Below, piece after piece: positions 15,287-63,089 of a stretch of DNA of 64,000 nucleotides; the stretch's first letter is position 1, and every line of letters starts with the position of its first letter. The DNA is taken from assembly GCA_043827405.1 (NCBI GenBank), contig JBDRPD010000083.1, positions 128,001 through 192,000 of the forward strand, written 5' to 3'. The notes below the pieces were generated by a model. That model was given only the letters and a program-made list of their open reading frames with translations, did not search any database and had not been told where the DNA came from. Position numbers and translations under genes: made by a program. This DNA is from Elusimicrobiota bacterium. GTDB taxonomy: Bacteria; Elusimicrobiota; Elusimicrobia; UBA1565.

Positions 15287-15310
15287 TGGCGGAATTTGGT
15301 CCCAAATCCG

Positions 15311-15349
15311 TAGGCCTAAAGGCCAACAAAAAATAGGACCAAGGGCCTA
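15311..15349. promoter_or_regulatory. Two copies of the TRGGNCC-NN-GGNCCYA-like palindrome (putative operator)
   Basis: TAGGCCTAAAGGCCAA (15311-15326) and TAGGACCAAGGGCCTA (15334-15349), upstream of TATAAT at 15372. Confidence 0.55.
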
Positions 15350-15383
15350 TGTGGGCGATTTGGGGCTGGGTTATAATACCGGG

Positions 15384-16610
15384 GTGAGACGTGCTCTCCT
15401 GATACTAGGTCTATCAGTATTGGCGGCGGGACCCCTGTATGCCGCGAATCCCACGATGGAGGATGATTTTACGTCCATCGTGGGCTGGTTGACCGCGCAG
15501 ACGGCGCAGGGCTTGGCGTTCAACTCCGGCTCGACCTTTGATCCGCCCAACGAGATGCGGGCTTGGCGTATTCAGCCGGACTTCAGTTTGGGCCTCGGCT
15601 TGATGCCGTTCGACAAGAACGCTTTCCCTCAGATGCAGGTCGAGGCCCTGGCAGAGAAGGGGCTGAAAGACGACATGCCCAGCAAGGTCCTGTTCCCTAA
15701 CTTGACGTTTCATTCCCGCATGGGGCTGCCCTGGCGTATGGATATGGGCATTCGGCTCGTTAATATGACGGTCCCCAAAAACTATCGCCTGTCGGAAACC
15801 ATGGTCGGCAACGGCCAGAGCAATACCATGGGCATCGGCTTGCGCAAGCACTTCTTCGGCCGCGGGATGCCGCTGCTGACGGTTTCGGGAGCGTATAACC
15901 GGGTATTCGGCTACTTCAATTTCAAAACCCGTTTCAATGATATGGAACTGGTGCCGAACGTATTAACGGCCAGCAGCAATGTGTTCGGTCAGATGGACTG
16001 GAACGTGACGAGCATCGGCGTCAATTTTGTCGTCAGCCAGGTGTACGGCAAGTGGACGCCGTTTATCGGCGCCGGCTACAATCGGATTTCGGGCATCGTG
16101 GACGGACGTATGGAGGCGGTCTGGGAGACGCCGCTGATCGCCACTACGGTCGGCCGGGCGAGCGGTCGCCCGGAGCCCCATAACACCCGCTTGCTTCTCG
16201 GCTTTCAACGCGACGGCTCGTTTTTTAGCCTATTCGTCAACGGCGAGCTCAAGACCAGCGGCGTGCATGCCGGCCGGTCCTATATCGTGTCTACCGGGCT
16301 GGCGGCGCCGTTTCGTATCGGGGCCAGAAGCAGCGTTGTGCGTTATGGGCGCAATAAGCCCAAGGGCTACGCGTCGCTTCCCGAGCCGTCGCGCTTTACG
16401 TCGAGCAGCCGGGCGCGCCGTAAGAAGAGCCGCGGGGACGACCGCGTCTCTCACCGCAAGAGCCGGCTGGAGCGGTACTGGAACTGGGGCCGCAACCGCG
16501 ATATGCGCAAAGCCAAGGCCGCGGCCGAGCAGGCGCCGAAGAAATCGAAGAGCGCCAAGCGCGCCAAGCGTGCTCGTCGAGAGCCTCCCGAGCTGATCTT
16601 CATCTACTAA
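15384..16610 (+). CDS. Exported protein, probable outer-membrane beta-barrel, with a basic C-terminal tail (start reassigned to GTG 15384)
   Basis: Signal peptide RRALLILGLSVLAAGPLYA; alternating amphipathic strands (TPFIGAGYN); C-terminal aromatic residue. Confidence 0.6.
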   Translation: MRRALLILGLSVLAAGPLYAANPTMEDDFTSIVGWLTAQTAQGLAFNSGSTFDPPNEMRAWRIQPDFSLGLGLMPFDKNAFPQMQVEALAEKGLKDDMPSKVLFPNLTFHSRMGLPWRMDMGIRLVNMTVPKNYRLSETMVGNGQSNTMGIGLRKHFFGRGMPLLTVSGAYNRVFGYFNFKTRFNDMELVPNVLTASSNVFGQMDWNVTSIGVNFVVSQVYGKWTPFIGAGYNRISGIVDGRMEAVWETPLIATTVGRASGRPEPHNTRLLLGFQRDGSFFSLFVNGELKTSGVHAGRSYIVSTGLAAPFRIGARSSVVRYGRNKPKGYASLPEPSRFTSSSRARRKKSRGDDRVSHRKSRLERYWNWGRNRDMRKAKAAAEQAPKKSKSAKRAKRARREPPELIFIY

Positions 16611-16633
16611 ACTCCCAGTTGACGGCACGGTTC

Positions 16634-16649
16634 TGGGACGATGGGCCCA
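16634..16649. promoter_or_regulatory. Copy of the palindromic motif upstream of the giant protease
   Basis: TGGGACGATGGGCCCA. Confidence 0.5.
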
Positions 16650-16740
16650 CCATATGGAGGGCCTTTTTCTTTTGCAAAAATCCCTAAAAGACCCATCCGC
16701 TCCCGAGGTTCTGCGGCTACCATCTATAGTAGGAGCACCT

Positions 16741-19700
16741 GTGAGAAGATACTGTGCCGTCATCCTGTCGGCGTCGTTGATCCTGGCCGCTCCCGGCCCG
16801 GGGAGCTGGGCGAGCGCCGCCCAGGTGGTGATACCGAAGACCGGAGCCGCGCCCGTGGTTTCGGGAGGCGTCGCGGTGCCGGTCGGGGCACAGTTTGCTT
16901 CGGGCATGCAGGCGGGCTTTAGCGCCGCTCCCGCGCTCTCCTTGGGCGTTTTGCCCGGGATGGACAGGACGCCTTCTCAGGGTGCCGTCTTTCAGCTTCC
17001 GGTTTCCCTCACGCTTCCCGTTTCCCCCGCGCTGCGGCGCAGTCATCAGGGCCTTTCCGGCGTAACCGGCGTCCCGGGTGTTATGCCCGTTCAGCCCGGC
17101 ACGCATATGGGGGATGCGCAGAAGACCGGCCGGCTGCGGCAGGCTTCACCCTACGCGGCCCAGCCATCGCGCGGCGCCTTTAAGAATACCTTGCTGCAGT
17201 CGCTGCGGCTGCCCTCGCGTCTGAAGGATAGTTCACAGATGAGCGGGGAGGAGTTGTCGCGGACTGCTGAACACGATTTCCGCCTGCATGCCGGCGCCGG
17301 TGCGGGCGGCGGTTCCGGCGCCGTCAGCGCGACGCCGTATAAAGGAAGCGCGGTTTTCGCAGCTCCTTCCGGCGCGGGGCACACCGCGGTTCCCGGCGAA
17401 GCATCGGGCATCCGTCAGGGCTGGCAGGCGCTCGCCAAGCTCTTCGCGCGCAGCGGACCGGCGGGGCTCCCTTCCGGAGTGCTGAAGCTGCACACTCCCG
17501 ACGGACCGGTTAAATCCATGAATATCCGCTCTGTCGCGGGAAGAGCTCCCGGTTCGGCGGGCGGGAGCGCGGTCCTGAAAAACAGCGCGGTCGCCGAAAA
17601 GAACACTGTTTCCGACGTCTCTGCGGAGGCAATCGTGCCGGGCGGAAAAGCGGCGCCGGCTATGTCCGGATCCAGCGGAGTTAAGCCGGCGGCGGCGATT
17701 GAGAAATCTTTTTCCGTAGAGAACGGCTCGGAGTCCGGCGCGCCGGTACGCGAATATCGCTCGGCCTATTTCCCGCTGACCGTCGCCATGGTTTCGGCGG
17801 CGGTGCTGGGGCTCGCCCTCGGCCTGCCGGCGCTGCTGCAGACGATCGCTCCCGCTCTGCTGCCGAGCGCCGCTCTGCAGTCGCTGTCGGCATCGGCCGG
17901 CGTCGAATTCTTCGGCGCGGCCCTGCGTGCCGCCGTGGACGTCATCGCGGCGACGACCGCGCTGAGCGCCGCGTATGCGCTGTGGGAGGCGTTCACTTTC
18001 GCGCTGGGCGTCGCGGTGCGCAAGCCGGTATCCGACCAGGAATTCTGGAGCTTTATCCGCCAGGAGCTTAAGGGCTGGGACCTGCATCCCAGCGTCCGGG
18101 AAAGCCTGTTGGGGACGGGGCCGGGGCGCGGGATGCTCAAGCCTTATCGACCGCCGGGACGCTTCGGCGGTCTGGCCTACGGCTTTACGGCGGGCGGGGC
18201 GATCTACCTGCGGCCGGAGATGATCCGGACGCCGTGGCTGTTCCGCTGGGTGCTCAAGCATGAGCTGGTGCACCTTAACAGGCATTTCTCCCGCGGCCCG
18301 CCGGAGCGGTTAACCGGGCTGCATCGGATCTCCCGCTTTTTTGTTTCGGAACTCGGTGCGCGATTCGGGGAATGGCGCTCGATTCGCAAGCTGCGCAGCC
18401 TGCGCATCCCGGTTCTGCACCGCGTCCTGAGCGCCGCGCGGCTTTCGCTCAAACGCAGCAAGCCTTATGACATGCTCATCGTTCATCCGGGCCACCATGA
18501 ATCCCGCAACTCCAAGACCTATGCCGAGCTTTCCGGGGGGCTGGCGAATGTCGTCGAGCTCTATACCAAGGATCAGAGCGACAAGGCGGCGCTGCAGATT
18601 AAAAATGACGCTTTCGCGCCCGATGTCGAGGCCGGCATCCAGCGCCTGTCGAGCGGCGACCGGACGCCGGATGGGAAGCGCGTTCGGGATTATTTGCAGC
18701 GCGAGGAGAACGACAGCCGGTTCCGCCTGATCGTCTATCCGCAGTCTTTCGGCGCCCTGCCCGCAGCCGCCTCCAATGACGGCCGCAAGCTGCGCCGCGC
18801 TCTGCAGCGTCTCGACCGGGTGTATATGCTGTCGCGGCAGATGCCGCTTCTGCAGCGCATCGAGACGGTCCCGACTCGGCGGATCGGGCAGATCGAACGG
18901 CTGATCAATTCGCTCGGCATTGCCTGGAAGCCGGGAATGAGCCCCGAGCATCTCGAACAGCTGATCAACGAAATGTATTACCGTGCGTCCCGCGACGTCA
19001 TGAGCGACGACGCCTTCGTGCAGACTTTGGAGAGCGTCTATGATGCGCTGCATCATCGGGGCTCTCTGCTGCTGCCCTTCGCGCCGGGCGAGCCGGGACT
19101 CGATATGGTCGAGCGGGTCATGCGGTACTGGCGAGCGGAGGACGGGGGACGCTTTAATGTTATGCGCGTCGACCTGCCCGAAGGCGGGCATGTCCTCGTC
19201 GCGCGCAAGAGCGAGCCGCGGGTCGATTTGTGGCTGCGGCCGGCGGCGGATAAGGCGATAAAGAAGTCGGTGACGAATGTGAACACGGCGCGCAATCAGA
19301 CGCCCAGCCCCGAGGATATCCTGCGCGAAGCCGGCTTCAACGATGCGGACCTTGAGCGTTTTAAGAACGCGGACATGGAGGTGCGGCACGTTTTCGGCGC
19401 CGATGTCGGCGATAACCGCATTTACGTCAATGTCCGCCGCAGCCATGCGCAGCTGCTCAAGCAGTATGCGGTGGAGGCCGGCATCCAGTTCCAGAGCTCT
19501 GAGCGTTTCGCCCTGCATCTGGTGGAGAGCGGCCCGCTGCAGAAAGCGGATAAGGTGTGGAAGCTGGGCTTTACCGGCGCGGGCGGGCGCATCTACGATA
19601 TCGACACCGGGCTTGATACGAGCCATCCGGATTTTGCGGACCGGCACATGGAATCGGTGGACTTCGTCGATGAAGGTCCGGAAGACTGGATCGGGCACGG

Positions 19701-22700
19701 CACGCATAAGGCGGGCATCTCCTACGCCAACGGCACGATTTATCGAGGCATGGCTCCGGGAGCCGAAGGACGCATGGGCAAGGTCTTCGCCCAGAACGGC
19801 ATGGGCGCTTCCGACGGAGAGATTATGGCGGCCGCCGTGGATGCCATGCAGTGGGGCGCCGACGTCATCAGCCTCAGCCTCGGCAGCCCCGGGGCCGTTG
19901 AGTCGCCGCTTGCCGAGTTTTTCTCCCGCCTGACCAAGCAGAAGAACGCCAAGGGCGAATATCCGATCGTGACCGGATCGGCCGGCAACTCCGGACCGTT
20001 CAACAGCACCAAGAGCCAGCCCTCGGTGGGCGAGAACGTGGCATCCATCACCGCCGCGGCGAAGAGCCTGGATGACGGCGTGCCGGAGATTTCCTTCTAT
20101 TCCTCCGTGGGGCCCGCCTACGACCGTCGCTACGGCCGGCTGCGCTACCGGCGGCCGCTGGGGCTGACGGCTTTGGGCGGCGACGTGACGACGCCGCCCG
20201 GCGTCAAGGACGTCTACGCGGACGGCATCGAGTCGGTCAAGTCCAAGGATATGCCGGCGGGTCCGTCGGACGCCGCGGACGGGCGCCACACGCGGATGTC
20301 GGGCACGTCGATGTCCAACCCGATGATCGCGGGCATCGCCCTGCTGGTGAAGCAGGCGGTGCAGAGCGTCGTCAAATCCGGGACGGAGGCGTACGATTTC
20401 TTCACCGCCGAGCTGCCGTTCGCCGTCAATATGATCCTCATGCGTTCCGCCGAGGATATGCGGGTCCCTATCTTCTTCCAGGAGGGGGGCTTCGTTGACG
20501 CGCAGGCCGCCGTGCAGCTCGCGGTCCGGTCGTTCGGCGGCGAGTTGATCGGCGGGATGCGGCGCGCCGTCCGCGCCGTCCGGTCTTTGGGGCGCTCGAC
20601 CAATAAGGTGAGCGAAGCCGCCGCGAACAGCGATGCGCGGTCGTGGGATTGGATCGTGCGCGCGAAAGCGGTATGGGAACTCGAGGATCGTCCCTTCGCG
20701 GCGGGCGAGCGGGCGCGGCAGCGCGCCATTAAGAACCTGCAGGCCAAGGCGGTCGCGGCGCCCGGCGGCAATATCGACGGTCCAGAAGAGAGCCCGCAAG
20801 CGGACATGGTCAGCAAGCGGAAGCTCGGTGACGCCGGCAACCGGGCGATGCAAAAGGACTTCGACGCCGTGCGCAGCGACGTGGTCCCCGCGCTGATCGA
20901 GGCGCTGCAGGATAAGGTTTGGATCGTGCGGATGTACGCGGCCTTTGCGCTGCTGAATCTGCGGGCGCCCGAGGCGGTCCTGCCGCTGGCCGATGCGGCG
21001 CTGCAGGACGCCGACGGACGGGTACGGCAGACGGCCTTTCTCGCGCTGGCGGAGACGTCCGGCTACGCCGCGGACGAAGCCCTGCGTCAGGCGCTCAACG
21101 ATGGCCGCCCCGATGTCGAAATGTACGCCGCCTATGCTCTGGCGCGCCACGGCGTCATGGAGGGGATCGCGCGCATCAGCGCCCATGCCCGCAACGCGGA
21201 CAAGAAAGTGCGCTTTACGGCGGTCTGGCTCCTGGGGCAGCTGGGACGGCGGGCGCCTCCTGAAGTCACCGATGTCCTGGCCCGGCGCGTTATCGATACC
21301 GATGAGCGGGGAAATATTCGCCACCTCTCCGTCGCCTCGTTAACCGAAGTGGCGCGCGCCCGGCCCGAATCCCTCACCAATGAGACGATACTGAATCTCC
21401 TTTACTCTTCCGGCCCGCAGAACTTCGCGCTCACCCGCACGATCGCAAAATTCTTCGCCGTCGCTGCGCAGTCCTCGCTTATTCGCGATCGTATGGCCGA
21501 AAAGCCGCTGCGCGAAGACATCCTCCGCTTTATCCATAAATACAAGAACGCCGTGCATCGGCCCGGCGCCCTCGGCGAGATGGTGCGCCTGCTGTCGCGG
21601 ATTTTGAACGTGCCGCTGGACTCTCCGACGCCGCTGCCCAACCCCAGCGGCGAGGGGGTGCCCGGAGTCGATCCGAACCTCGGCCCGGTCGATCTGATCG
21701 TTGAATTCCCGGAAGACGCGCCTGCGGGGGCGCGCATTCAGCGCTTCGAAGATTTTCGCGCTTACTCCGATGTAAGCAGGCGGGGCGAACAGTCGCGGCA
21801 GCGCGCTGCGCAGACGCTCGGTGAGCTCGGTTTGGCGCCGGAGATGGTGGGCACGCATGGGGCCGATCTCCAGGTCGCGATGCCGCACAGCCAGTCGCTG
21901 TGGTTCAGCGTGCCGGACGCCAAGGTGGTGGCGTTCGCCAGCGAGATGGAATCGCGCGGCTACCGCGTGCGCCGGGCGGCGCCGATGTACCGGCTGCTGC
22001 ACGAGACCGGCGAGCTATCCGGCATGCCGGCGCTGCGCGAAAAAAGCGGGCTGACCGGCGACGGGGTTCTGGTGGCTTACCTCGATGAGGGGGGTGATAC
22101 CCAGCACCCGGCCCTCCCGGCCAAGCGCATACGCGTCAAGAAGAATTTTACCACGGACGGCAGGTCCGGCGAAGTCGAGCGTGAGAGCGTTAGTCATGGG
22201 ACCCATGGTATGGGCATCGTGGGCGGCGAAAGCGTCGACGGCTCGCCCTACGTCGGCATGGCGCCGGGCGTGGAGTTCGCGATCGGGAAGGTCCTCGGCG
22301 CCACCGGCGGCAGCGAGGCGACGGTGATGGCCGGCATGGAGTGGGCGGCCAGCTTGTCGGCCGATCCGCTGAAGGACCCGGTGATTATAAATATGAGTCT
22401 CGGCGGTCCCGGTGCGGCCGACAGTCCGATCAGCCGTCTCGTCAACCGCTTGCGGCTGAAGAATATCGGCGTCGTGGCGGCGGCGGGCAACTCCGGGCCG
22501 ATGGAGGGCACGGTCTCCTCGCCGGCGAACGCGGCACTGGCCATCTCGGTCGGCGCGGTGGACAAGGCGAAGCATCTCGCCGACTATTCCTCACGCAGCG
22601 AGAAAGGCGTACGCGAGCTGTCCTGGGTGGACTTCGGCGGCGCGGTGTTCTTCGACCGGCCGAACCTTTACGATATCGTCTCGGCGCTCAATACCCGCCT

Positions 22701-23163
22701 GCAGGAAGAGATGGCGGATTCTCCGACCGGCGTAAAGTGGAAGGATAAGCTGCTGTACCACACCATGTCGGGGACGTCGATGGCCGCGCCGCATACCACG
22801 GGCAAGCTGGCGGTGCTCGTCGAGGGCATGCGCAAAGCCTTCCCCGAGGGCCTGCCGACCGGCTACCTCTTTTATATTGAAAAGCTCGTCGAAGCGACGG
22901 CCGCGCGCATGAAGGACAACGGCGAGAACGAGGTCGGGGCGGGCTTAATAGACGAGGCCGCCGCTCTGGCGGCCCTTGAGAAGGCGCTCACGGACCCGGC
23001 GAAGGTCCGCTCCGAGTCGGAAGCCATGATCCGGCGGGCCGCGGCGGATTACGGGCAGCCCGCCGCTCCCGCGTCCGCGGGCGGCTGGCTTGCGCACCTG
23101 CGGTCGGTGCCGCGGGCGGTCGGCAGCGTCGTGCACTCTTTCATGACGCTGTTTCTCTTTTAG
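16741..23163 (+). CDS. Giant (~2140 aa) multi-protease: HExxH zincin motif, S8 subtilase, HEAT repeats, second S8 subtilase
   Basis: AGGAG SD then GTG 16741; signal peptide; HELVH; first triad DTG/HGTH/GTSMS; HEAT repeats (VRMYAAFALL, VRQTAFLAL); second triad DEG/HGTH/GTSMAAP. Confidence 0.88.
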   Translation: MRRYCAVILSASLILAAPGPGSWASAAQVVIPKTGAAPVVSGGVAVPVGAQFASGMQAGFSAAPALSLGVLPGMDRTPSQGAVFQLPVSLTLPVSPALRRSHQGLSGVTGVPGVMPVQPGTHMGDAQKTGRLRQASPYAAQPSRGAFKNTLLQSLRLPSRLKDSSQMSGEELSRTAEHDFRLHAGAGAGGGSGAVSATPYKGSAVFAAPSGAGHTAVPGEASGIRQGWQALAKLFARSGPAGLPSGVLKLHTPDGPVKSMNIRSVAGRAPGSAGGSAVLKNSAVAEKNTVSDVSAEAIVPGGKAAPAMSGSSGVKPAAAIEKSFSVENGSESGAPVREYRSAYFPLTVAMVSAAVLGLALGLPALLQTIAPALLPSAALQSLSASAGVEFFGAALRAAVDVIAATTALSAAYALWEAFTFALGVAVRKPVSDQEFWSFIRQELKGWDLHPSVRESLLGTGPGRGMLKPYRPPGRFGGLAYGFTAGGAIYLRPEMIRTPWLFRWVLKHELVHLNRHFSRGPPERLTGLHRISRFFVSELGARFGEWRSIRKLRSLRIPVLHRVLSAARLSLKRSKPYDMLIVHPGHHESRNSKTYAELSGGLANVVELYTKDQSDKAALQIKNDAFAPDVEAGIQRLSSGDRTPDGKRVRDYLQREENDSRFRLIVYPQSFGALPAAASNDGRKLRRALQRLDRVYMLSRQMPLLQRIETVPTRRIGQIERLINSLGIAWKPGMSPEHLEQLINEMYYRASRDVMSDDAFVQTLESVYDALHHRGSLLLPFAPGEPGLDMVERVMRYWRAEDGGRFNVMRVDLPEGGHVLVARKSEPRVDLWLRPAADKAIKKSVTNVNTARNQTPSPEDILREAGFNDADLERFKNADMEVRHVFGADVGDNRIYVNVRRSHAQLLKQYAVEAGIQFQSSERFALHLVESGPLQKADKVWKLGFTGAGGRIYDIDTGLDTSHPDFADRHMESVDFVDEGPEDWIGHGTHKAGISYANGTIYRGMAPGAEGRMGKVFAQNGMGASDGEIMAAAVDAMQWGADVISLSLGSPGAVESPLAEFFSRLTKQKNAKGEYPIVTGSAGNSGPFNSTKSQPSVGENVASITAAAKSLDDGVPEISFYSSVGPAYDRRYGRLRYRRPLGLTALGGDVTTPPGVKDVYADGIESVKSKDMPAGPSDAADGRHTRMSGTSMSNPMIAGIALLVKQAVQSVVKSGTEAYDFFTAELPFAVNMILMRSAEDMRVPIFFQEGGFVDAQAAVQLAVRSFGGELIGGMRRAVRAVRSLGRSTNKVSEAAANSDARSWDWIVRAKAVWELEDRPFAAGERARQRAIKNLQAKAVAAPGGNIDGPEESPQADMVSKRKLGDAGNRAMQKDFDAVRSDVVPALIEALQDKVWIVRMYAAFALLNLRAPEAVLPLADAALQDADGRVRQTAFLALAETSGYAADEALRQALNDGRPDVEMYAAYALARHGVMEGIARISAHARNADKKVRFTAVWLLGQLGRRAPPEVTDVLARRVIDTDERGNIRHLSVASLTEVARARPESLTNETILNLLYSSGPQNFALTRTIAKFFAVAAQSSLIRDRMAEKPLREDILRFIHKYKNAVHRPGALGEMVRLLSRILNVPLDSPTPLPNPSGEGVPGVDPNLGPVDLIVEFPEDAPAGARIQRFEDFRAYSDVSRRGEQSRQRAAQTLGELGLAPEMVGTHGADLQVAMPHSQSLWFSVPDAKVVAFASEMESRGYRVRRAAPMYRLLHETGELSGMPALREKSGLTGDGVLVAYLDEGGDTQHPALPAKRIRVKKNFTTDGRSGEVERESVSHGTHGMGIVGGESVDGSPYVGMAPGVEFAIGKVLGATGGSEATVMAGMEWAASLSADPLKDPVIINMSLGGPGAADSPISRLVNRLRLKNIGVVAAAGNSGPMEGTVSSPANAALAISVGAVDKAKHLADYSSRSEKGVRELSWVDFGGAVFFDRPNLYDIVSALNTRLQEEMADSPTGVKWKDKLLYHTMSGTSMAAPHTTGKLAVLVEGMRKAFPEGLPTGYLFYIEKLVEATAARMKDNGENEVGAGLIDEAAALAALEKALTDPAKVRSESEAMIRRAAADYGQPAAPASAGGWLAHLRSVPRAVGSVVHSFMTLFLF

Positions 23164-23166
23164 GGT

Positions 23167-24998: not shown

Positions 24999-25028
24999 CG
25001 CGCTAATGTACTATTTATCGCCGCAAAG

Positions 25029-25060
25029 AAAAACCCGCCCAGCATGGCTGGACGGGTTTT
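25029..25060 (-). terminator. Intrinsic terminator (possibly bidirectional) after the 79-aa basic protein
   Basis: AAAACCCG-CCAGC/GCTGG-CGGGTTTT stem with flanking A and T tracts. Confidence 0.75.
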
Positions 25061-25079
25061 GTCTGCGGAACGTACGGTC

Positions 25080-25319: not shown

Positions 25320-25427
25320 TCTTTTCTCCTGTGCAGCGCCTTGTGTTCAAGCACGCTACGACTTAATATCTTCGACGGGGGATGCGGCATTTCCCGTCGG
25401 TCGACGGAGGATACTCCATCGGGTCTC

Positions 25428-25456
25428 AGAATACATTATCTCTCGTCGGAATGCAA
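25428..25456 (-). promoter_or_regulatory. Putative sigma70 promoter of the 79-aa gene
   Basis: TTGCAT-17 bp-TATTCT on the minus strand. Confidence 0.6.
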
Positions 25457-25500
25457 GTATTTTCTCGTCGAGTTCCCGACGAGAAAAATAGGAGGCGGGG

Positions 25501-25833: not shown

Positions 25834-25853
25834 TAGTTGCTGTCGTCGCGGGG

Positions 25854-34239: not shown

Positions 34240-35628
34240 ATGCCGAAGCTGAAATCCATCTATATCTGCCAGGAGTGCGGCCAGTCCACGACCAAGTGGG
34301 CGGGCCAGTGTCCGGCCTGCCGCGCCTGGAATACTTTGGTCGAGGAGGTCGTCGAAGAGCGGCCCGCCGCGGCGGTCAAGAGCGCGCCGCGGCCGCTGAC
34401 GGACTTCACTTCCGAAACGGTCCCCCTGGCCGATGTCCAGGCGGCGGAGGCCGCGCGGACGCCGACGCGCCTGAGCGAGCTGGACCGCCTGCTGGGCGGC
34501 GGGCTGGTGCCCGGACACGTGCTGCTTCTCGCCGGAGCCCCCGGGATCGGGAAATCCACTTTGATGCTGCACGCCGCCGGCAGCCTGGCGGCCGCGGGCA
34601 AGGTCCTTTATGTCAGCGGCGAGGAGTCTCTCAGCCAGGTCAGCGGCCGCGCCAAGCGGCTGGGCCTGCGGGGCGAAGGCATCTACCTGCTGGCGGAGAC
34701 CGATCTGGTGAAGATTTTGGACGCGATCCGCAAGCATGAGCCGCGCTTTATCGTTATCGATTCGGTGCAGACCGTCTATCATCCCGAGCTGGGGGGCGGC
34801 CCGGGCTCGGTCGGACAGGTGCGCGAGTGCGCCGCCGAGCTCCTGCGGGCGGTCAAGCAGCGGGACGCGGCGCTGTTTCTGCTGGGGCATGTCACCAAGG
34901 AGGGCAGCGTCGCCGGGCCCAAGGTCCTTGAGCATATCGTCGACACGGTCCTGCAGTTCGACACCGAAAAGCATCATCAGCTGCGCGTGCTGCGGGCGCA
35001 GAAGAACCGCTTCGGACCGACCTCCGAGATCGGAATCTTCGAGATGCGCGAGGACGGGCTGCATGGGGTAACCGATGCCTCGGCCTTTTTTATTGAGGAA
35101 CTCGACCGGGCCCCGGTACCCGGGCGCGCGATCTCGGTGGCGGTTGAGGGCTCCCGGCCGATGCTCGTCGAAGTACAGGCGCTGGTGTCGCCGACCCGCT
35201 ATCCCTTGCCGCGGCGCATGGCGACCGGTATCGACGTCAACCGCGTGCTGGTGCTGGTAGCGGCGCTGGAGAAGCATCTGGCGGTGCGCTTTGAGAATCA
35301 GGATATCTTCGTGAACCTGGCCGGCGGGGTGCGGCTGCGCGATCCCGCGATTGATTTGGCGGTGTGCCTGGCGCTTGTTTCCTCGGCGCGCGAGGCCGCG
35401 CTGCCGTCGGATCAGGTCTATATCGGCGAGGTCGGCTTGCTGGGCGGCCTCGGCCGGGTCGCTTTTCTTACCGAGCGGCTGCAGGCGGCCGAGCGCGTCG
35501 GCTTTAAGAGCGCGGTCATCCCCAGCCGGTCGCGCAAGGACCTCGCCGGCGGCAAAAGAAAGCTGCGGCTCGTCCTGCAGGAAGCCGACGACATGGTCGC
35601 CGCTGTCGGCCGGGTACTAAAAATATGA
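34240..35628 (+). CDS. radA: DNA repair protein RadA/Sms
   Basis: CQECG...CPAC zinc finger, GAPGIGKSTL, KNRFG. Confidence 0.96.
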   Translation: MPKLKSIYICQECGQSTTKWAGQCPACRAWNTLVEEVVEERPAAAVKSAPRPLTDFTSETVPLADVQAAEAARTPTRLSELDRLLGGGLVPGHVLLLAGAPGIGKSTLMLHAAGSLAAAGKVLYVSGEESLSQVSGRAKRLGLRGEGIYLLAETDLVKILDAIRKHEPRFIVIDSVQTVYHPELGGGPGSVGQVRECAAELLRAVKQRDAALFLLGHVTKEGSVAGPKVLEHIVDTVLQFDTEKHHQLRVLRAQKNRFGPTSEIGIFEMREDGLHGVTDASAFFIEELDRAPVPGRAISVAVEGSRPMLVEVQALVSPTRYPLPRRMATGIDVNRVLVLVAALEKHLAVRFENQDIFVNLAGGVRLRDPAIDLAVCLALVSSAREAALPSDQVYIGEVGLLGGLGRVAFLTERLQAAERVGFKSAVIPSRSRKDLAGGKRKLRLVLQEADDMVAAVGRVLKI

Positions 35629-45980: not shown

Positions 45981-47918
45981 ATGCAAGCTATGCTCTTCTC
46001 AGCGGTGAAAAAGAAGGGCAATAAAAAGTCGGAAAAATTCGGCACGGTTCTGGGCTGCGCTCCCGGAAACGTGCCGGTTTACTCGTCGGACTACGGTACG
46101 GTCGACAAAGAGCGGCTTCCCACGCGGCATACCTTCCGGAGCTATGTCGATGGGATATTCATGGGGTACAAATGGCAGTGCGTGGAGTTCGCCCGACGCT
46201 GGCTGTACCTGAACCGCGGGTTTGTTTTCGACGATATCGCGATGGCATACGATATATTCCGTCTCAAATCCGTTCGGGTGGTTAAAGACGGCGCCGTTCT
46301 GCCGCTCCACTCGTTCGCCAACGGATCGGCACGGCTTCCCGAACCGGGCTGCCTGCTCATATGGAACGAGGGCGGGGAATTCGCGGATGCGGGGCATGTG
46401 GCTGTCGTTACGGAAGTTTTTCCCGATCGAATCCGTTTCGTGGAGCAGAATGTCGAGCATGAGTTATGGCCGGCAGGACAAAATTATTCCCGGGAGCTGC
46501 GCGCAAAAGAAGATGAGAACGGCGGCTACTGGATAGAGTGCTTTTACAGCGGAGCGACCATCCTGGGCTGGGTCATTCAGACCGGCGATCCGCAGGGGGC
46601 GGAAATCTTCCCGGACCTCGATATAGAGCTGCTGAATCTTCAGGCGCGCGAGGTTAAGAACCGCGGCCAGGCCAACCGATCCTGGCTCAATGTCGCCAAT
46701 CCCGATGAGGCCGCCTATGTGGCTGTCCAGGGTCACAAGGTGACCGACAGGAAGGACAAGGAGTATAAGTATTTTTGTATTTCCGAATCGGCGTACGGCG
46801 AGCTCAAGCGGGCGACCAACCAGCTGCATTCCATGTTCATGCACGCCACCGACTATGTGCTGCAGAATGAAGCGGTGCTGGAGAGGTTTTGCATTCCCCG
46901 GCCTCTCTGGTCCAGGCTTCGGCGGTCATGGGACAATCGCCGCAATCAGGCGATAACCGGGAGGCTTGATTTTTCGGTCTCGGAGAACGGGATAAAAATC
47001 TATGAATACAACGCTGATTCCGCCGCCTGCTATATGGAATGCGGAGTCATCCAGACAAAATGGTCCAAGCACTTCGGCTGCAAGGAAGGATGGTGCGCGG
47101 GAGAGAAGCTGCACCGCGAGCTGGTCGACGCCTGGAAGGACAGCGAAGTGGACGGCATCCTGCATATCATGCGGGATAATGATCGCGAGGAGGCTTATCA
47201 TGCCCTCTTCATGAAAGCGGCGATCGAGCAGGCCGGAATCGAGTGCCGGGTAATCACCGGATGCAGGGGGCTGTCCTGGGACGCGGACGGACGGGTCATC
47301 GATTCGGCGGGCGTTCCCATTCGCTGGGTTTGGAAAACGTGGGCATGGGAAACGGCGCTGGATCAAATCCGCGCCGAATGCGACGAAGATGATACGCGGG
47401 AGCCGCAATCCCTGCTGCGGGGTCCCGCGAGGGGGGCGCCCCGCTTGGTCGACGTGCTGCTGGGAGAGGATGTTCTGGTTTTTGAGCCCCTCTGGACGCT
47501 GATCCCGAGCAACAAGGCGATTCTTCCCGTGCTATGGACCCTGTATCCCGGCCACCCGTACCTGCTTGATTCACAGTTTGAGCTGACTGCGGAGTTGCGG
47601 GGAAAGGGGTTCGTGGCAAAGCCCATCGTGGGGCGCTGCGGGGCCAATATAAGTATTTTCAGCAAAGACGACTCTCTGGTCTCCCGGACCGGCGGTCAGT
47701 TCGAAAAGCGTGAGCAGATCTATCAGGAGTTCTTTCCTCTGCCGAAAATCGACGGCGACAATGTGCAGGTCGGGACGTTTCCGGTGTCCGGAGTGTTTGC
47801 CGGGGCCAACGTCAGAATGGACCCATCTCTCATCCTGGTGTCCGACAGCGACATGCCCGCATTAAGAGTGGTCAACGACGAGGCGCTGCTGGACGGCGGG
47901 CGGCTTAGGGGGTCTTAG
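45981..47918 (+). CDS. gsp: Bifunctional glutathionylspermidine amidase/synthetase
   Basis: CHAP amidase GYKWQCVEFARRW and GHVAV; ATP-grasp GRLDF, YEYNADS, WKTWAWE, FEPLWTLIPSNKAILP, KPIVGRCG. Confidence 0.93.
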   Translation: MQAMLFSAVKKKGNKKSEKFGTVLGCAPGNVPVYSSDYGTVDKERLPTRHTFRSYVDGIFMGYKWQCVEFARRWLYLNRGFVFDDIAMAYDIFRLKSVRVVKDGAVLPLHSFANGSARLPEPGCLLIWNEGGEFADAGHVAVVTEVFPDRIRFVEQNVEHELWPAGQNYSRELRAKEDENGGYWIECFYSGATILGWVIQTGDPQGAEIFPDLDIELLNLQAREVKNRGQANRSWLNVANPDEAAYVAVQGHKVTDRKDKEYKYFCISESAYGELKRATNQLHSMFMHATDYVLQNEAVLERFCIPRPLWSRLRRSWDNRRNQAITGRLDFSVSENGIKIYEYNADSAACYMECGVIQTKWSKHFGCKEGWCAGEKLHRELVDAWKDSEVDGILHIMRDNDREEAYHALFMKAAIEQAGIECRVITGCRGLSWDADGRVIDSAGVPIRWVWKTWAWETALDQIRAECDEDDTREPQSLLRGPARGAPRLVDVLLGEDVLVFEPLWTLIPSNKAILPVLWTLYPGHPYLLDSQFELTAELRGKGFVAKPIVGRCGANISIFSKDDSLVSRTGGQFEKREQIYQEFFPLPKIDGDNVQVGTFPVSGVFAGANVRMDPSLILVSDSDMPALRVVNDEALLDGGRLRGS

Positions 47919-52902: not shown

Positions 52903-52907
52903 GGGTA

Positions 52908-52947: not shown

Positions 52948-52953
52948 CAAATT

Positions 52954-53517: not shown

Positions 53518-53518
53518 T

Positions 53519-58020: not shown

Positions 58021-58901
58021 TGTCCGCGACCCAGCCTACCGGTCTCGAGCATGCGAGCGGGGAGACCGCCATCCGGCCGCTCGCGCTCGCCTTCGCCATC
58101 ACCTTCTGCATCTTCCTGCTCGAGTTCGGCGGCGGCATATGGTGCGGCTCGCTGGCCCTGGTCGCCGATGCCATGCATATGGCGGTGGACCTCGTCGCTC
58201 TGGCCCTCGGCCTGTTCGCCGCTTGGGCGGCGGGCCGGCCGGCGGACGACAAGCGAACTTTCGGCTATCATCGCGTTGAGGTTCTGGCGGCGCTGGGCAA
58301 CGGCATCGGCCTGTGGATCATCGTCGGCGTGCTGCTGCATGAGGCCTGGGGCCGGTTCAATGCGCCGCGCGACGTGCGTGTCGTGGAGATGATTATCATC
58401 GCGGTCATCGGTTTGGCCGCCAACCTCATCGCGGCGGCGCTCCTTTTTCGCCACAGCCACAACAACCTCAACGTTAAGGGCGTGCTGCTGCACGTGCTCT
58501 CCGACGCCTTGGGTTCGATCGGCGCCATCGCCGCGGGTATCGCGATGTGGGCGGGCGGCTGGATGATCGCGGACTCCCTGGCCACCGTTTTTATTTGCGT
58601 TGTGATTACCTTTACATCCTATAAGCTGATCCGCGAATCGATTCATATCCTGCTCGAGGGGGCGCCGGCTGATGTGGACATCGGTGCGCTGCGCCGCTCC
58701 CTTGGCAGCCTCGAAGGCGTGGTCGAGGTCCACGACCTGCATCTGTGGTCGTTATGCTCGGGCAGCGCGTCGATGAGCGGCCATCTCGTGATTGAGCCCG
58801 GACGGGACGAGCAGGCGGTGCGTCTCGCGGGCGCCGAACTCCTGCGGCGGGAATTCGGGCTCACCCATCTGACCCTGCAGATAGAAAGACGCGGAGACTA
58901 G
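58020..58901 (+). CDS. Cation diffusion facilitator (CzcD/ZitB-like)
   Basis: SLALVADAMHM, TFGYHRVE, LHVLSDALGS, VHDLHLW, HLTLQIE. Confidence 0.92.
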   Translation: MSATQPTGLEHASGETAIRPLALAFAITFCIFLLEFGGGIWCGSLALVADAMHMAVDLVALALGLFAAWAAGRPADDKRTFGYHRVEVLAALGNGIGLWIIVGVLLHEAWGRFNAPRDVRVVEMIIIAVIGLAANLIAAALLFRHSHNNLNVKGVLLHVLSDALGSIGAIAAGIAMWAGGWMIADSLATVFICVVITFTSYKLIRESIHILLEGAPADVDIGALRRSLGSLEGVVEVHDLHLWSLCSGSASMSGHLVIEPGRDEQAVRLAGAELLRREFGLTHLTLQIERRGD

Positions 58902-59284
58902 CCTTTTGCCATGAGCTCGAAGATGCGGTCGAGCTTGTTCTTGATGATCTCCACGTCGATCGGCTTGACCACGTAGTCGATGGCGCCGAACAGGATGGCG
59001 TCGTTGAGGGTGGCGGCGTCGCTGAGGCCGCTGACTACCAGGATGGGGATATGCGCGGTTTCCGGATCGGAGCGGATCTCCTGGGTGAGGCTGATCCCGT
59101 CCTGGTCCGGCATCATGATATCCATGAGGATGGCATCGGGCTTGTGCTTTTTGAGGGCTTCCCGGCACTTGCCCGCGCTGGAAGCGCAGACGACGTCGAA
59201 GCCGACGATGGGGAGTCCCTTTTCGTAGATGTCGCAGACGGATGCGTCATCATCGACGGCGAGTATCAGTTTCTTGTCAGGCAT
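58898..59284 (-). CDS. Single-domain response regulator receiver
   Basis: ILAVDDD, LMDIMMPDQDG, DYVVKP. Confidence 0.9.
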   Translation of the reverse strand: MPDKKLILAVDDDASVCDIYEKGLPIVGFDVVCASSAGKCREALKKHKPDAILMDIMMPDQDGISLTQEIRSDPETAHIPILVVSGLSDAATLNDAILFGAIDYVVKPIDVEIIKNKLDRIFELMAKG

Positions 59285-59780
59285 GACCGGTGTCCTCTTT
59301 TCCCCGTTGGATCCAGGAGCCGATCGGGGCGTACGCGCTCCCTTTCCGATACGCTAAGTATGCCAGGCATAGCAGCACGCTGTCCAGGGTCAGCGCCTGG
59401 GCCGGCGTCAGGTGAAAGCCGCCGAAGCAGCCGCAGCTCTCCAGGGGGACGCCGCGCACGAGCGTCGAGGCGAGCGCGCCGATGAACATCAGGAAGAGGG
59501 CGCCCGCCGTCGCCGCCGAGAGCCGGCACAGGTAGCCGCCCAGAAGCGCCAGGCCGAGCAGGATCTCCACCGGCGGCAGCGCCCGTGCCATGTTTAACGC
59601 CATTTCGGGCGATATGAGATGGTAGGCCTCGATTATGACCGCGAATTCTTCGGCCGGCGCCGCAGCCTTCTGCAGCCCCGAAACCAGAAAGACCGCGGCC
59701 AGCAAGGTGCGCGCCGCCGCTCCCGGGATGTCCCAGGCAGGAGACGACGGCGGCTCGTTCTTTTTGCGCTGCTTGCTCAT
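59277..59780 (-). CDS. MauE/DoxX-family membrane protein
   Basis: R..LAAVFLVSGLQK, LPPVEILLG, CGCFG. Confidence 0.85.
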   Translation of the reverse strand: MSKQRKKNEPPSSPAWDIPGAAARTLLAAVFLVSGLQKAAAPAEEFAVIIEAYHLISPEMALNMARALPPVEILLGLALLGGYLCRLSAATAGALFLMFIGALASTLVRGVPLESCGCFGGFHLTPAQALTLDSVLLCLAYLAYRKGSAYAPIGSWIQRGKEDTGHA

Positions 59781-60424
59781 TTTCCCTTGAGGATGTTTTC
59801 GATATGGTTTAGGCCGTGGGTGCGCAGCTGGAGGTCCCCGACGAAGCGGCGGCCGTTGATGATGAAAGTCGGAGTCGAGCCGACCCAGCGTTTTTTGGCT
59901 TCCTTAAACTCCGCATCCACCGCCTCGCCGACCGCGGGGGTGTCCAGGCAGGCGGCAAAAGCCGCTTCATCCAGCTTGAGCTCCTTGGCGAAGGTGAAAA
60001 AGACGCCGCGTACCTCGTCTTTCTTCGTCTTCACTGTCCATTGGTGCTGCCGGGCGAACAGGCGGTCGTGAAAACCCCAGAAATCGCCGCCCTTGCCCGC
60101 GCATTCGGCGGCAATGGCGGCGTCGCGGGCCCAGTCGTGAAAATCCCAGGGGAAGTGCTTGAATATAATGCGGACCTTGCCGGGGAACAAGATCTGCGCG
60201 AACTTGCCGACGGTGGGGGCCGCAACCCGGCAGGCCGGACATTGAAAATCGGAGTACTCGGCGATGATTACGGCCGCGTCGGCGGGGCCCTTTTGGCGGT
60301 AGGCGGGGGCATCCGGCACGTATGGGGTCGATTTGCCGCGAACGGCGCAGGCCAGCGCCGCCGTCGCGGCCAGCAGGGCCGCGCCCGCGAATAGTCTTCG
60401 TCCCGACTTGGTCGTTGGCAGCAT
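59777..60424 (-). CDS. DsbA/thioredoxin-like oxidoreductase; start 60424 or 60433
   Basis: YSDFQCPAC, FKHFP, GSTPTFIING. Confidence 0.9.
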   Translation of the reverse strand: MLPTTKSGRRLFAGAALLAATAALACAVRGKSTPYVPDAPAYRQKGPADAAVIIAEYSDFQCPACRVAAPTVGKFAQILFPGKVRIIFKHFPWDFHDWARDAAIAAECAGKGGDFWGFHDRLFARQHQWTVKTKKDEVRGVFFTFAKELKLDEAAFAACLDTPAVGEAVDAEFKEAKKRWVGSTPTFIINGRRFVGDLQLRTHGLNHIENILKGK

Positions 60425-60438
60425 TCGCGCCATAATAG

Positions 60439-60478
60439 CAAAAAGACCTCCCGGCGCAGTGCCGGGAGGTCCTTTTTG
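60439..60478 (-). terminator. Intrinsic (bidirectional-looking) terminator after the subtilisin
   Basis: 11-bp stem GACCTCCCGGC/GCCGGGAGGTC flanked by A and T tracts. Confidence 0.8.
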
Positions 60479-60490
60479 CCGAATAATCGC

Positions 60491-61756
60491 TTATTGGACG
60501 AGCTTGCCCGCGTCCACCATGCCGGCGCCCTGCTGGGTGTCCGGCACGCCGTCGAACTTCGTCGCGGCGCTCTGCAGCGCTTCCATGACCGCGTCGAAGC
60601 CGCTGGCGCCGTTGGCGATCGCGAGCGCCGCCAGGCCCGCCGCATGCGGGCAGGCCATGGACGTTCCCGAGAGGCTCCGGTAGCCGCCGCCCATATAGGT
60701 CGACTCCACGCTGACGCCGGGGGCGATGATGTCCACTTCCGGGCCGCGGCTCGAGAAGTAGGCGACCTGGTCGCTCGAGTCCGACGCCGCGACCGCGATC
60801 GCTTCCGGGTAGGCCGCGGGATAGCCCACGGCGCGTCCGGAGTTGCCGGCGGCGGCGACGATGGTCGTCCCCTGCTTTTTGGCGTTGGCGATCGCTTCCG
60901 CGAGGGACTCCGTCCCGGATGAAGCGCCGAGGCTCATGCTGCCGATGTCCATATTGTTCTTGACCGCCCACTGGATGCCGTCGATGACGCCCTCGAAGGT
61001 TCCGCTGCCGCTGGCCGACAGGACCTTGACGCCGTAGAGGGTCACGTCGGGAGCGACGCCGACGACGCCGATGCCGTTGTCCTGTCCGGCGATGGTGCCG
61101 GCGCAGTGTGTTCCGTGGCCGTTGTCGTCCTTGTATGAGACACTGTTGTCGATGGCGTTGTAGCCGCCGGCCACCACGAGATCCTCATGGTCGAAGTCGA
61201 TGCCGGTGTCGATAACCGCGACCTTGACGCCCTTGCCGCGGGTGACGGGCCAGGCCGCCTTGGCGTTGACGCGCTTGATGCCCCACGGTACCTTTTGACC
61301 GGCGGCGTCCGGCGGCGCTTCTTCAGTCGTCGTCGCCTTGAGCCAGTTCTGTACGTAGTCCTTCTCGACGCGCAGCACCTCGCTCAGCGAGGCCAGGCTC
61401 CGGTCGACGCCGGCCGCCTTGACCTTGGGCACGATAACCGCCACCGCGTTGACCAGCCATAGGTCCTTGGTGGGAATGCCGCCGGTGTCGCGCACCAGGC
61501 TCATCCGCCGGGTCAGGGACGTGCTTTTCTTGAAAACGACGATGCGCCGCTCGATCGAATCGTCGAGCTCCTGAACGGCGACCTTTTCGCCCTGGATTTG
61601 CTCGGCGGGCGAGGACTTGGACGCCTGCTCCATCTTGGCGACGAGGCCTTCGACCTTAACGCCCTGGTCGAAGTTGACCGCGGCCGCGGGAAGAGTCGTT
61701 TGCGGGGCCAAAAGAGCCGCCGCGCACAACAACGCAGATAGTTTGCTTCGAGACAT
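60491..61756 (-). CDS. Secreted subtilisin (S8A) with propeptide; start 61756 or 61768
   Basis: VAVIDTGID, NGHGTHCAG, AAAGNSG, SGTSMACPH; signal peptide. Confidence 0.95.
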   Translation of the reverse strand: MSRSKLSALLCAAALLAPQTTLPAAAVNFDQGVKVEGLVAKMEQASKSSPAEQIQGEKVAVQELDDSIERRIVVFKKSTSLTRRMSLVRDTGGIPTKDLWLVNAVAVIVPKVKAAGVDRSLASLSEVLRVEKDYVQNWLKATTTEEAPPDAAGQKVPWGIKRVNAKAAWPVTRGKGVKVAVIDTGIDFDHEDLVVAGGYNAIDNSVSYKDDNGHGTHCAGTIAGQDNGIGVVGVAPDVTLYGVKVLSASGSGTFEGVIDGIQWAVKNNMDIGSMSLGASSGTESLAEAIANAKKQGTTIVAAAGNSGRAVGYPAAYPEAIAVAASDSSDQVAYFSSRGPEVDIIAPGVSVESTYMGGGYRSLSGTSMACPHAAGLAALAIANGASGFDAVMEALQSAATKFDGVPDTQQGAGMVDAGKLVQ

Positions 61757-61805
61757 GACCACCCCCATTACGATTTCACCACTAGCCGTAACTTAGCATA
61801 ATTAA

Positions 61806-61843
61806 AACCGAAAGGCCTAGTGAAAAATAGGCCTAAAGGGAGG
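61806..61843. promoter_or_regulatory. Degenerate copies of the palindromic motif upstream of the subtilisin
   Basis: AAAGGCCTA (61811-61819) and TAGGCCTAAAGG (61828-61839); the latter is identical to 15311-15322. Confidence 0.5.
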
Positions 61844-61844
61844 G

Positions 61845-62306
61845 TTATTCTGGGCGCGCTTTGGGGGCTAAAAGGTCCGGTTCTTCGCCGGGAGCGGCGC
61901 TTTTGGCGCAGCCCGGCTCGGCGTCCAGGAGCCCGGAGTTTCCGTCGGTAATATTCGGTTTCGCGGGCTCCGGTTCAGCGCAGGGCGGGGAGTCTGCAGG
62001 GGGAGCTGGATTGCGTACCGCCTCCTGGAAGGCGGCGTCGTCTGCGAACCTGTCGACCACGGTCTGCAGGCGGCGCCGGTCCGCCTCGGCGGCGCCTTGC
62101 TGCAGCGCTGGGCGCAAGCCCGGCACGGCGTCGAGTTCCCGGTTGAAGCCGGCGGCGCCGGGGTGATCGTAAAGAGCGTCCAGGTTGAGCAGAACCTGCT
62201 TGGCGAAGGTCGTCAGCTCGAAGCGCTCTTCTACCGGCGGTTTCTCCGCCGCGGGCTGGCAGCCCAGACTGATAAGCGCGAGCGAGATCAGGAGGAGGAG
62301 CTTCAT
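61845..62306 (-). CDS. Hypothetical lipoprotein; start reassigned to ATG 62306
   Basis: MKLLLLISLALISLG-C lipobox; ATGA overlap with the upstream gene. Confidence 0.7.
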   Translation of the reverse strand: MKLLLLISLALISLGCQPAAEKPPVEERFELTTFAKQVLLNLDALYDHPGAAGFNRELDAVPGLRPALQQGAAEADRRRLQTVVDRFADDAAFQEAVRNPAPPADSPPCAEPEPAKPNITDGNSGLLDAEPGCAKSAAPGEEPDLLAPKARPE

Positions 62307-62977
62307 CGGAAGAGGGACAGGAAGCGGTCTTCGTACTCCGCGAACAAGCCATACTCCCGGAGCTTGGTTCCCAGGCTCTGCCGGGCGCCGGCGTCGCGGC
62401 GCGCCCGCGTGAAGAGCCGGTCTACTTCGTTGCGGCGGCGGCGGTCGGCGTTCGCGCCGGGCTCGAACATCCCGTGGTTGCTGAGGTCGCGGACATTGGT
62501 CGGAAAGGAGCGGGCGGCCTCCTCGATGGTGAAGCGCATAAGAGCCAGCGACCAGGCGGCGTCGGGGCATTGGATGACGGCGGCCTGCGGGGAGCCGAGG
62601 TCGTCGAGCTCCTTGAGAATCCGCTCCGCGGCGACCTGCGGCTTTTGGGCGAGAACGCGGGTTTTCAGGTCCTGGTTTTTAAACCGGTATTCCAGCGCCT
62701 GCAGGACGTCCTGATACTGGGTGCCGAGCCAGTCGGCGAATTCCGCCGCGTTCTTGCCGAAGCCCTCGAAGCGGTCCCGCAGGGCGTCCGCCGTTAGAAT
62801 CTTGGGGCGTTCCGATATCACCCAGCCCTCGCGCAGGCGCGTCTTGTTGGGCAGCTGATCGACGGCGGAAATCAGGTGGTACTGGATGCGGGTGTCGCCG
62901 AAGGTCGACAGCGTCTTTTTCGGCGGCCGCAGCAGTTTCGTTTCGCTTAGGAACTTGCGGATCAGGGATGGCTTCAT
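62303..62977 (-). CDS. Hypothetical cytoplasmic protein
   Basis: Coding-like ORF with its own promoter; LSTFGDTRIQY, RLREG, YEDRFLSL. Confidence 0.75.
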   Translation of the reverse strand: MKPSLIRKFLSETKLLRPPKKTLSTFGDTRIQYHLISAVDQLPNKTRLREGWVISERPKILTADALRDRFEGFGKNAAEFADWLGTQYQDVLQALEYRFKNQDLKTRVLAQKPQVAAERILKELDDLGSPQAAVIQCPDAAWSLALMRFTIEEAARSFPTNVRDLSNHGMFEPGANADRRRRNEVDRLFTRARRDAGARQSLGTKLREYGLFAEYEDRFLSLFR

Positions 62978-62988
62978 CTGCTGCCGAT

Positions 62989-63017
62989 ATCTTAACAACC
63001 CCCCAGCGGACCGTCAA
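62989..63017 (-). promoter_or_regulatory. Sigma70 promoter
   Basis: TTGACG-17 bp-TAAGAT with TG extension. Confidence 0.65.
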
Positions 63018-63072
63018 TGAAGGCCCGTTGTTTTTCGCGAACTCCCTTTAGTACAATGGGCCTAGTTCAGGA

Positions 63073-63089
63073 TGGGACCTTCGGTCCCA
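63073..63089. promoter_or_regulatory. Perfect copy of the palindromic motif
   Basis: TGGGACC-TTC-GGTCCCA. Confidence 0.55.

Follow-up and report, generated by a model that had tools for sequence, protein, structure and literature searches.

A clade-wide palindromic box upstream of predicted exported-protein genes in Elusimicrobia and its candidate Tad-operon regulator

The locus and the box

The 64,000-nucleotide window analysed here (positions 128,001 to 192,000 of contig JBDRPD010000083.1, Elusimicrobiota bacterium assembly GCA_043827405.1) opens with a Tad pilus cluster and a run of signalling genes ending in a NarL-type response regulator, and carries, behind this regulator and again at its far end, genes for predicted exported proteins preceded by copies of a palindromic box (Table 1; genes and sites are named by window position). 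An earlier note on the same DNA had listed motif strings before four such genes as a candidate secretome regulon. All of the strings are present where it placed them, and those at 15311, 15334 and 16634 are full boxes, whereas 61811/61828 are only sub-threshold half-sites (6.5 bits); the string at 63073 and its companion half-site at 63057 exist, but the full box there begins at 63049, and 63057 is its right half. All four genes were flagged for signal peptides by a custom heuristic, as the note had stated. It had not noticed the motif in housekeeping intergenic regions; among the other window genes with at least 40 bp upstream, the one divergent to 63111 is alone in reaching threshold. Window matches at 34914 and 50705 are both intragenic.

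Table 1. Features of the window that bear on the box, its targets and its candidate regulator.
Feature	Position	Strand	Details
Tad cluster: RcpC, secretin, TadZ-TadA fusion ATPase, TadB, TadC-like, TPR protein, membrane protein	1..9250	+	Pfam; gene order conserved
TadZ-TadA fusion ATPase, proline-rich N-terminus	1564-4143	+	CbiA and T2SSE in one frame
Membrane protein without Pfam match, end of Tad cluster	8114-9250	+	
OmpR-type regulator and stand-alone receiver	9784..10983	+	Pfam
Membrane sensor kinase, dCache-HAMP-HisKA-HATPase	11088..13109	+	Pfam; dCache match below curated cut-off
Receiver-first hybrid histidine kinase	13172..14290	+	Pfam REC, HisKA, HATPase
NarL-type response regulator, Asp69, putative binder	14341..15042	+	REC PF00072 E 3e-28; GerE helix-turn-helix PF00196 E 4e-17
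Distal box of tandem pair	15311..15326		16.5 bits; begins 23 bp before 15334
Proximal box, predicted centre -42.5 (class II activator position)	15334..15349		21.3 bits
Predicted -10 hexamer TATAAT	15372..15377	+	Leaderless mRNA predicted; GTG start 12 bp downstream
Target gene, 408-aa predicted exported protein, family not assigned	15384..16610	+	DUF6588 below cut-off only
Full distal box of three-site array	16634..16649		18.9 bits
Degenerate second and third sites	16658..16695		Half-site scan: left half 16658 (+24), right half 16689 (frame 16680, +46)
Predicted -10 hexamer TACCAT	16718..16723	+	+84 from 16634, +38 from 16680 frame; both genome-wide peak offsets
Target gene, 2140-aa predicted exported protein	16741..23163	+	Pfam: two S8 domains, HEAT repeats
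Possible target gene, predicted exported S8 subtilisin	60491..61768	-	Pfam S8
Two back-to-back half-sites, 8 bp apart, sub-threshold, doubtful	61811..61834		Best 16-mer 6.5 bits
Full box	63049..63064		14.7 bits; holds -10-like TACAAT (63052-63057)
7-3-7 secondary site	63073..63089		24 bp after 63049; 8.0 bits as 16-mer
Target gene running slightly past window end, 298-aa predicted exported protein	63111..64000	+	No Pfam match; FDQG paralogue family

The genome (G000; 4.33 Mb, 63% GC, 108 contigs) holds 3578 genes by a custom gene-calling script (92% coding, with heuristic gene starts). Starting from 18 intergenic matches, a palindromic matrix trained on this genome converged on the 16-base palindrome TRGGHCY-WW-RGDCCYA, a 7-2-7 box. 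At a threshold of 10.25 bits, intergenic DNA holds 119 sites against 11.6 in dinucleotide shuffles, a somewhat generous ratio, given that training used the same DNA; the exact degenerate pattern occurs 34 times in the genome against 0 for its reversed control. When dyads were counted without a seed in 1393 intergenic regions, TAGG-N8-CCTA came fifth, at 22 occurrences where 2.3 would be expected, and CCCA-N8-TGGG and CCTA-N8-TAGG likewise stood close to the top. Further strong intergenic dyads of this genome are TTAA-N2-TTAA (39 vs. 3.5), GTTA-N1/N7-TAAC (26 vs. 1.9) and AGATA-N15-TATCT (9 vs. 0.2). The consensus first proposed, with a spacer of two or three bases, occurs 19 times with spacer 2, three times with spacer 3 and 0 times with spacer 1 or 4. 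Scored by spacer, the two-base form stands (91 sites vs. 6.4 in shuffles), while the three-base form, minor at most (15 vs. 6.7), was rejected as an equal form of the box; spacers 0, 1, 4 and 5 are at background.

Palindromes of this kind could be REP-like (repetitive extragenic palindromic) repeats, RNA hairpins or by-products of base composition, and the 63073 site, a perfect 7-bp stem with a 3-base loop, would suit the hairpin reading. Among the 100 sites of at least 12 bits, however, only eight have perfectly complementary arms, and complementarity per position is close to what independent variation would give, with a mild excess at positions 2/15 only; the 2-base loop of the box cannot close, and its distance to the -10 hexamer is fixed. 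Flanks are unrelated (median best identity 0.48; above 0.7 in 2 of 80). Per 10 kb, tandem regions hold 3.7 boxes, divergent regions 5.6 and convergent regions 1.1, against 0.13 in coding DNA, and the four convergent sites all fall within one of 133 regions. The marks of REP elements or miniature inverted-repeat transposable elements, namely a repeat unit with conserved flanks, a stable stem and a position downstream of genes, are absent from the box, and an Rfam scan of the window returned 0 matches. The imperfect arms and unrelated flanks fit a protein dimer reading two half-sites rather than a hairpin or REP element. The repeat, hairpin or composition reading is thus highly improbable, and we are strongly confident that the box is a protein-binding activator site.

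Promoter geometry and target genes

Transcription starts were inferred from -10 hexamers. The distance from a box to its partner site peaks at 24 bp (28 counts among 100 sites, the next value having 9), with echoes at 46-50 bp, and a -10-like hexamer begins +38, +61-63 or +84-85 from the first base of the box. These offsets, chosen post hoc, were found in 40 of 72 promoters against a mean of 5 for random offsets. With the same offsets fixed beforehand, 19 of 24 held-out promoters from three relatives (G066, G078 and G212) carried them, against 4.9 expected and at most 13 in any of 5000 draws; the hits peak at +38 (14) and +62 (10). The predicted box centres are accordingly about -42.5, -66.5 and -89, and tandem boxes with the proximal one at a predicted -42.5 are an activator layout. 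At 15334, TATAAT begins 38 bp past the first base of the box, the genome-wide peak offset, and the start codon lies at 50 bp. Counted back from the start codon, the -10 hexamer is most often at exactly -12, as in 110 of 1494 leader genes, which suggests many leaderless mRNAs.

Genes behind the box are strongly enriched in signal peptides, as the earlier note had proposed. Among unambiguous tandem-oriented genes, 37 of 48 with a box were flagged against 193 of 693 without (odds ratio 8.7, p = 1e-11); the figures are 41/48 vs. 322/693 when a nearby alternative start is allowed, and 36/46 vs. 187/677 when the window is excluded. Divergent regions contained at least one signal-peptide gene in 35 of 38 cases with a box and 230 of 364 without. 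Adjusted for region length, GC and orientation, the odds ratio for soluble exported proteins was 3.3 (p = 7e-10). In relatives, 23 of 30 box regions had a flagged gene start within 200 bp (G066 11/14, G078 5/8, G212 7/8), a tally without matched control for which regions were drawn from 15 of 27, 8 of 18 and 8 of 12 sites, respectively. Of 497 signal-peptide leader genes, 77 have the box, which therefore marks a subset of them: the term secretome regulon is apt for a predicted exported group of about 15% and too broad for the whole secretome.

Pfam was scanned at E 1e-8 for 69 of the 78 strict targets in G000, and 43 had no match. The families found include proteases and peptidases (S8 in six genes, two trypsins, S41, C93 and M28), wall-related enzymes (an L,D-transpeptidase, two lytic transglycosylases, an amidase and an M15 peptidase), a phospholipase D with four motifs, a nuclease of the staphylococcal type, a protein of metallo-beta-lactamase fold and an alpha/beta hydrolase. 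The comparison set was 78 signal-peptide genes without a box, taken from 40 of 384 tiles chosen at random; relative to it, neither hydrolases (19/69 vs. 12/78, p = 0.10) nor wall-acting enzymes (5/69 vs. 1/78, p = 0.10) were significantly enriched, and 0 of 9 M23 genes have a box.

Box targets turn over between lineages. A full box precedes 7 of 11 homologues of the window subtilisin in relatives, and a box of at least 12 bits lies upstream of 3 of 4 orthologues of 63111, two of which keep the -10-like TACAAT. Because the 63049 box contains this hexamer, it is possibly a repressing site; the 63073 site could also form a hairpin in the 5' untranslated region. Homologues of 63111 that bear organism names all come from Elusimicrobia, and an ESM Atlas cluster at 0.90 (commonest in Bdellovibrionota) was set aside, since its recognition value is low and sequence search did not support it. 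A universal export tag on mature targets was likewise rejected: only small families were seen, with no common signal. Two tags recur, FDQG (5/86 box-linked vs. 0/555) and PG-x-Y-x-A-x-A (6/86 vs. 3/555). Exported paralogues whose mature chain starts FDQG are encoded at window 63111-64000 and at G000:C54:33541-34539, C76:2527-3627 and C54:105597-106136, and the tag also begins the 61768 subtilisin.

Several box-linked proteins are large. Five of them in G000 (C36:3522-10172, C98:1136-7216, C3:33484-36705, C22:34432-50739 and C99:25740-37823) have a similar signal region with an Ala/Gly linker, and membrane spans. The large proteins carry normally cytoplasmic domains (ClpB-type AAA, MFS with ATP-grasp, M50 with S8) or have no Pfam match, and recall the giant proteins of Omnitrophota. 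A box target in G078 (L042:213-1412) has a type IX-like C-terminal sorting domain (PF18962). Among the box neighbours that are not exported are a few signalling proteins (receiver, PAS-GGDEF, PilZ; G000:C3:36807, C91:27569, C31:18084 and C94:13086), and a link to cyclic di-GMP is possible. Elsewhere in the window, 45990-47918 encodes a fusion of CHAP and glutathionylspermidine synthase.

The Tad-operon regulator as candidate binder

The exact box was found in 103 of 109 sampled genomes (families f1-f5, f8 and f11), with up to 47 copies against 0-3 for the reversed control, while 141 other genomes were at background, five having a single match each. The same 109 genomes all encode a helix-turn-helix (HTH) 59-90% identical to that of the 14341 regulator. 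No HTH of this type was found at E 1e-8 in f6, f9, f12 or f14, and weaker matches occur in f7, f10 and a few genomes of other classes. In three genomes (G150, G076 and G094, with 22, 21 and 14 exact boxes) the single GerE-family protein is the 14341 orthologue, and in G192, with 47 exact boxes, the two GerE-family proteins are both of this type. Across the box-bearing clade, the recognition helix (xVKT[IV]KNHLN) hardly varies, and the phospho-acceptor Asp is present in 42 of 42 homologous matches. Other candidates were rejected: three other GerE proteins of G000 have different helices and are not needed in single-copy genomes, and for the 9784 regulator, no member of its OmpR family was detected in nine of ten f4 genomes with boxes. 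Co-occurrence, the single-GerE genomes and gene order thus agree with the earlier note in making 14341 the best candidate, and we predict that a NarL regulator of this type very probably binds the box.

The layout resembles that of DevR (DosR) of Mycobacterium tuberculosis. DevR likewise has a NarL-family HTH and a palindromic box with a GG-x-C half-site, and combines strong primary with degenerate secondary sites in tandem, the proximal at -42.5; its GG-C half-sites lie in tandem at -42.5/-63.5 (PMC3177182). The two differ in period (24 bp here, 21 in DevR), in half-site (TRGGHCY here, GGGACT in DevR) and in targets, which are exported proteins here and dormancy genes in the DevR regulon (PMC3177182), and they are not orthologous, the DosR HTH being a weak match at E 5e-7.

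The regulator sits at the end of a conserved operon. Phylum-named relatives of the G000 Tad ATPase are all Elusimicrobiota, and full-length matches to the TadZ-TadA fusion extend across 79 Elusimicrobiota loci. The order tadZA-B-C-TPR-8114-like is kept in 52 of 52 loci with enough flank, with the kinase in 51 and the regulator reached in 22; the TadC-like gene of the window was assigned by position, and no TadC match was found in f6 (0/5), f9 (0/2) or f12 (0/1). In the single-copy genomes examined (four f4, four f5, one f8 and one f2), the listed loci have the regulator at the end of the Tad-kinase operon, usually followed by a conserved gene set, with a pilin in some. In most relatives, the genes that follow are counterparts of those at G000:C1:70214-73638, two pilin-like genes (by eye, no Pfam match) and an FtsH-like AAA/M41 gene; in G000 these are on another contig, and the 15384 and 16741 genes stand in their place. 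Upstream of flp, tad and relay genes in G000, no box of this type was found (best scores below 6 bits), and the 79 tad loci have one site of at least 13 bits, far upstream. Autoregulation of tad via the box was rejected on this ground, and the regulator would act downstream of the pilus.

Taken together, we consider it probable that a clade-wide box, likely bound by the Tad-operon NarL regulator, switches on a lineage-variable set of predicted exported proteins. Several points weigh against this. Binding is predicted from co-occurrence and gene order, and signal peptides were called by a custom rule, which flagged some membrane proteins as well (SecY, Lgt). Orthologues of 15384 in relatives have a box of at least 10.25 bits within 200 bp upstream in 0 of 5 cases. 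Six of 73 f4 genomes with the regulator have no box by the exact pattern; one of the box-less f4 genomes, G056, has 22 matches vs. 12 in the control at one mismatch. In an RpoB tree of 28 genomes (a quick search, one outgroup row dropped), the box-bearing families form one clade (Shimodaira-Hasegawa-like approximate likelihood ratio test 96), so the co-occurrence amounts to one event that any clade-specific factor would fit, and GerE and OmpR were the only candidate binder families checked for co-occurrence. The same tree places the box-less families outside the box clade, and independent losses of Tad, regulator and box within the class were therefore rejected. In family f7, a related NarL regulator lies next to Tad (58% identity, with KTVKNH retained in its helix), and no box excess was found there (3 vs. 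3 and 0 vs. 10 in the control), nor any relaxed box. Lastly, G000 has two further same-helix paralogues of 14341, at C51:1406-2086 and C35:39556-40260, both away from Tad, so 14341 may share the job.

Some of these points would suit another clade-specific DNA-binding protein, neither GerE nor OmpR, as reader of the box, with the NarL regulator co-distributed by descent: the single event, the f7 cousin without boxes, and the regulator's own operon without one. The 7-2-7 symmetry, GG-C half-site, tandem sites and -42.5 position are nonetheless DevR traits, and a nearly invariant helix is expected for a protein with many sites; we regard a different binder as improbable.

Proposed circuit, its input and related systems

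If the 14341 regulator is the binder, a signal would enter through the dCache-HAMP-HisKA membrane kinase and the receiver-first hybrid kinase, and these adjoining kinases would phosphorylate the regulator at Asp69. A phosphorylated dimer would occupy the strong distal box (centre about -66.5) and favour the loading of another dimer on the proximal box, which is centred at a predicted -42.5 across the -35 region and is often degenerate; the proximal dimer would then recruit sigma-70 RNA polymerase in the manner of DevR. A few sites over or below the -10, such as 63049, may repress.

The least certain step is the input. That the pilus, through contact or assembly state, feeds the kinases is a tentative suggestion drawn from gene order, and a chemical input via dCache is about as likely. 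The chemical alternative, itself somewhat short of an even chance, keeps the same box and regulator and overlaps with the reading preferred here in all but this step: the dCache kinase would sense amino acids or peptides and induce a scavenging secretome, and the relay would merely share the tad operon. The dCache_1 match on the sensor kinase, the two paralogous regulators away from Tad, the clostripain and M14 peptidases among the G212 targets and the S8 proteases (a box of their own at 6 of 14 genes, with 2 more in box-led operons, a post hoc observation) would all fit a scavenging response. Tad and kinase genes nevertheless stay together in 51 of 52 long loci, including reduced genomes without the OmpR family, and 0 of 11 G066 targets have a Pfam family (some are cut by the locus end).

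Pilus-linked regulators of this family have a precedent in Pseudomonas aeruginosa, where the PprB gene lies inside the tad locus. The PprA-PprB system also ties a NarL/LuxR-family regulator to Tad/Flp (PMC3510237; 10.1101/639112), and PprB directly controls the large secreted protein BapA (PMC3510237), which may be likened to the exported targets here. In contrast, PprB drives pilus genes (PMC3510237), whereas here the tad and relay promoters are without the box, the relay comprises two kinases and extra receivers, and the regulon consists of about 80 scattered, lineage-variable exported proteins. The Tad system of Bdellovibrio bacteriovorus has a TadZ-TadA fusion ATPase like the one described here (bioRxiv 10.64898/2026.07.08.737194), and TPR and kinase genes lie beside tad both there and in the Kil system of Myxococcus; in both, Tad is thought to act upstream of a lytic programme (10.64898/2026.07.08.737194; PMC8460266). 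In the accessible text, no transcription factor or regulon is tied to Tad in these systems, and the preprint leaves the link between Tad and signalling open (10.64898/2026.07.08.737194).

On this likeness, the Elusimicrobia clade, gut members included, could attack other cells: a Bdellovibrio-like TadZA pilus would report contact and the relay would fire a transcriptional 'predatosome'. This set would comprise wall-cutting enzymes (the L,D-transpeptidase, the two lytic transglycosylases, the amidase and the M15 peptidase), proteases, nucleases, phospholipase D and giant exported proteins with multiple membrane spans. We think this reading unlikely. In culture, Elusimicrobium can grow by itself as a fermenter, which weighs against obligate predation. 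Kil-like systems have been placed in predatory deltaproteobacteria (PMC8460266). Look-alikes of the fusion in the Atlas are commonest in Omnitrophota, Vulcanimicrobiota, Bdellovibrionota and Elusimicrobiota, and those in the first two indicate that the fusion is not specific to known predators.

Tad systems have been noted in Elusimicrobia (PMC6668835). A word search of the accessible text of a groundwater Elusimicrobia preprint (10.1101/765248) found none of Tad, pilus, secreted, peptidase or predat, and two further sources, in their accessible text, mention Elusimicrobiota only for large genes and small secretomes (10.1101/2023.11.21.568195; PMC11495043). No publication on the box or regulon, nor any other regulon described for Elusimicrobia, was found in a search that left aside subscription journals, regulon databases, preprint supplements and the 2009 Elusimicrobium minutum papers.

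Elusimicrobia are known almost only from genomes, and the analysis yields for them a target list per genome, together with the box that defines it and a specific candidate regulator. It sorts dozens of exported proteins that lack an assigned function into one predicted co-regulated group, and offers a direct handle on the purpose of the conserved Elusimicrobia Tad pilus. If the regulator binds the box, it would be one switch for part of the secreted enzymes of these little-known bacteria. A Tad-embedded regulator that apparently skips the pilus genes and is aimed at the secretome would reverse the logic of PprB. Because the Tad-kinase operon is also present in a cultured strain (record L195), binding, start sites and the inducing signal are open to experiment. 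If contact is the input, the circuit would lead from pilus to secretome, the kind of link that the Bdellovibrio work leaves open; if the predation reading is true, it would supply the missing wiring from Tad contact to the lytic programme.

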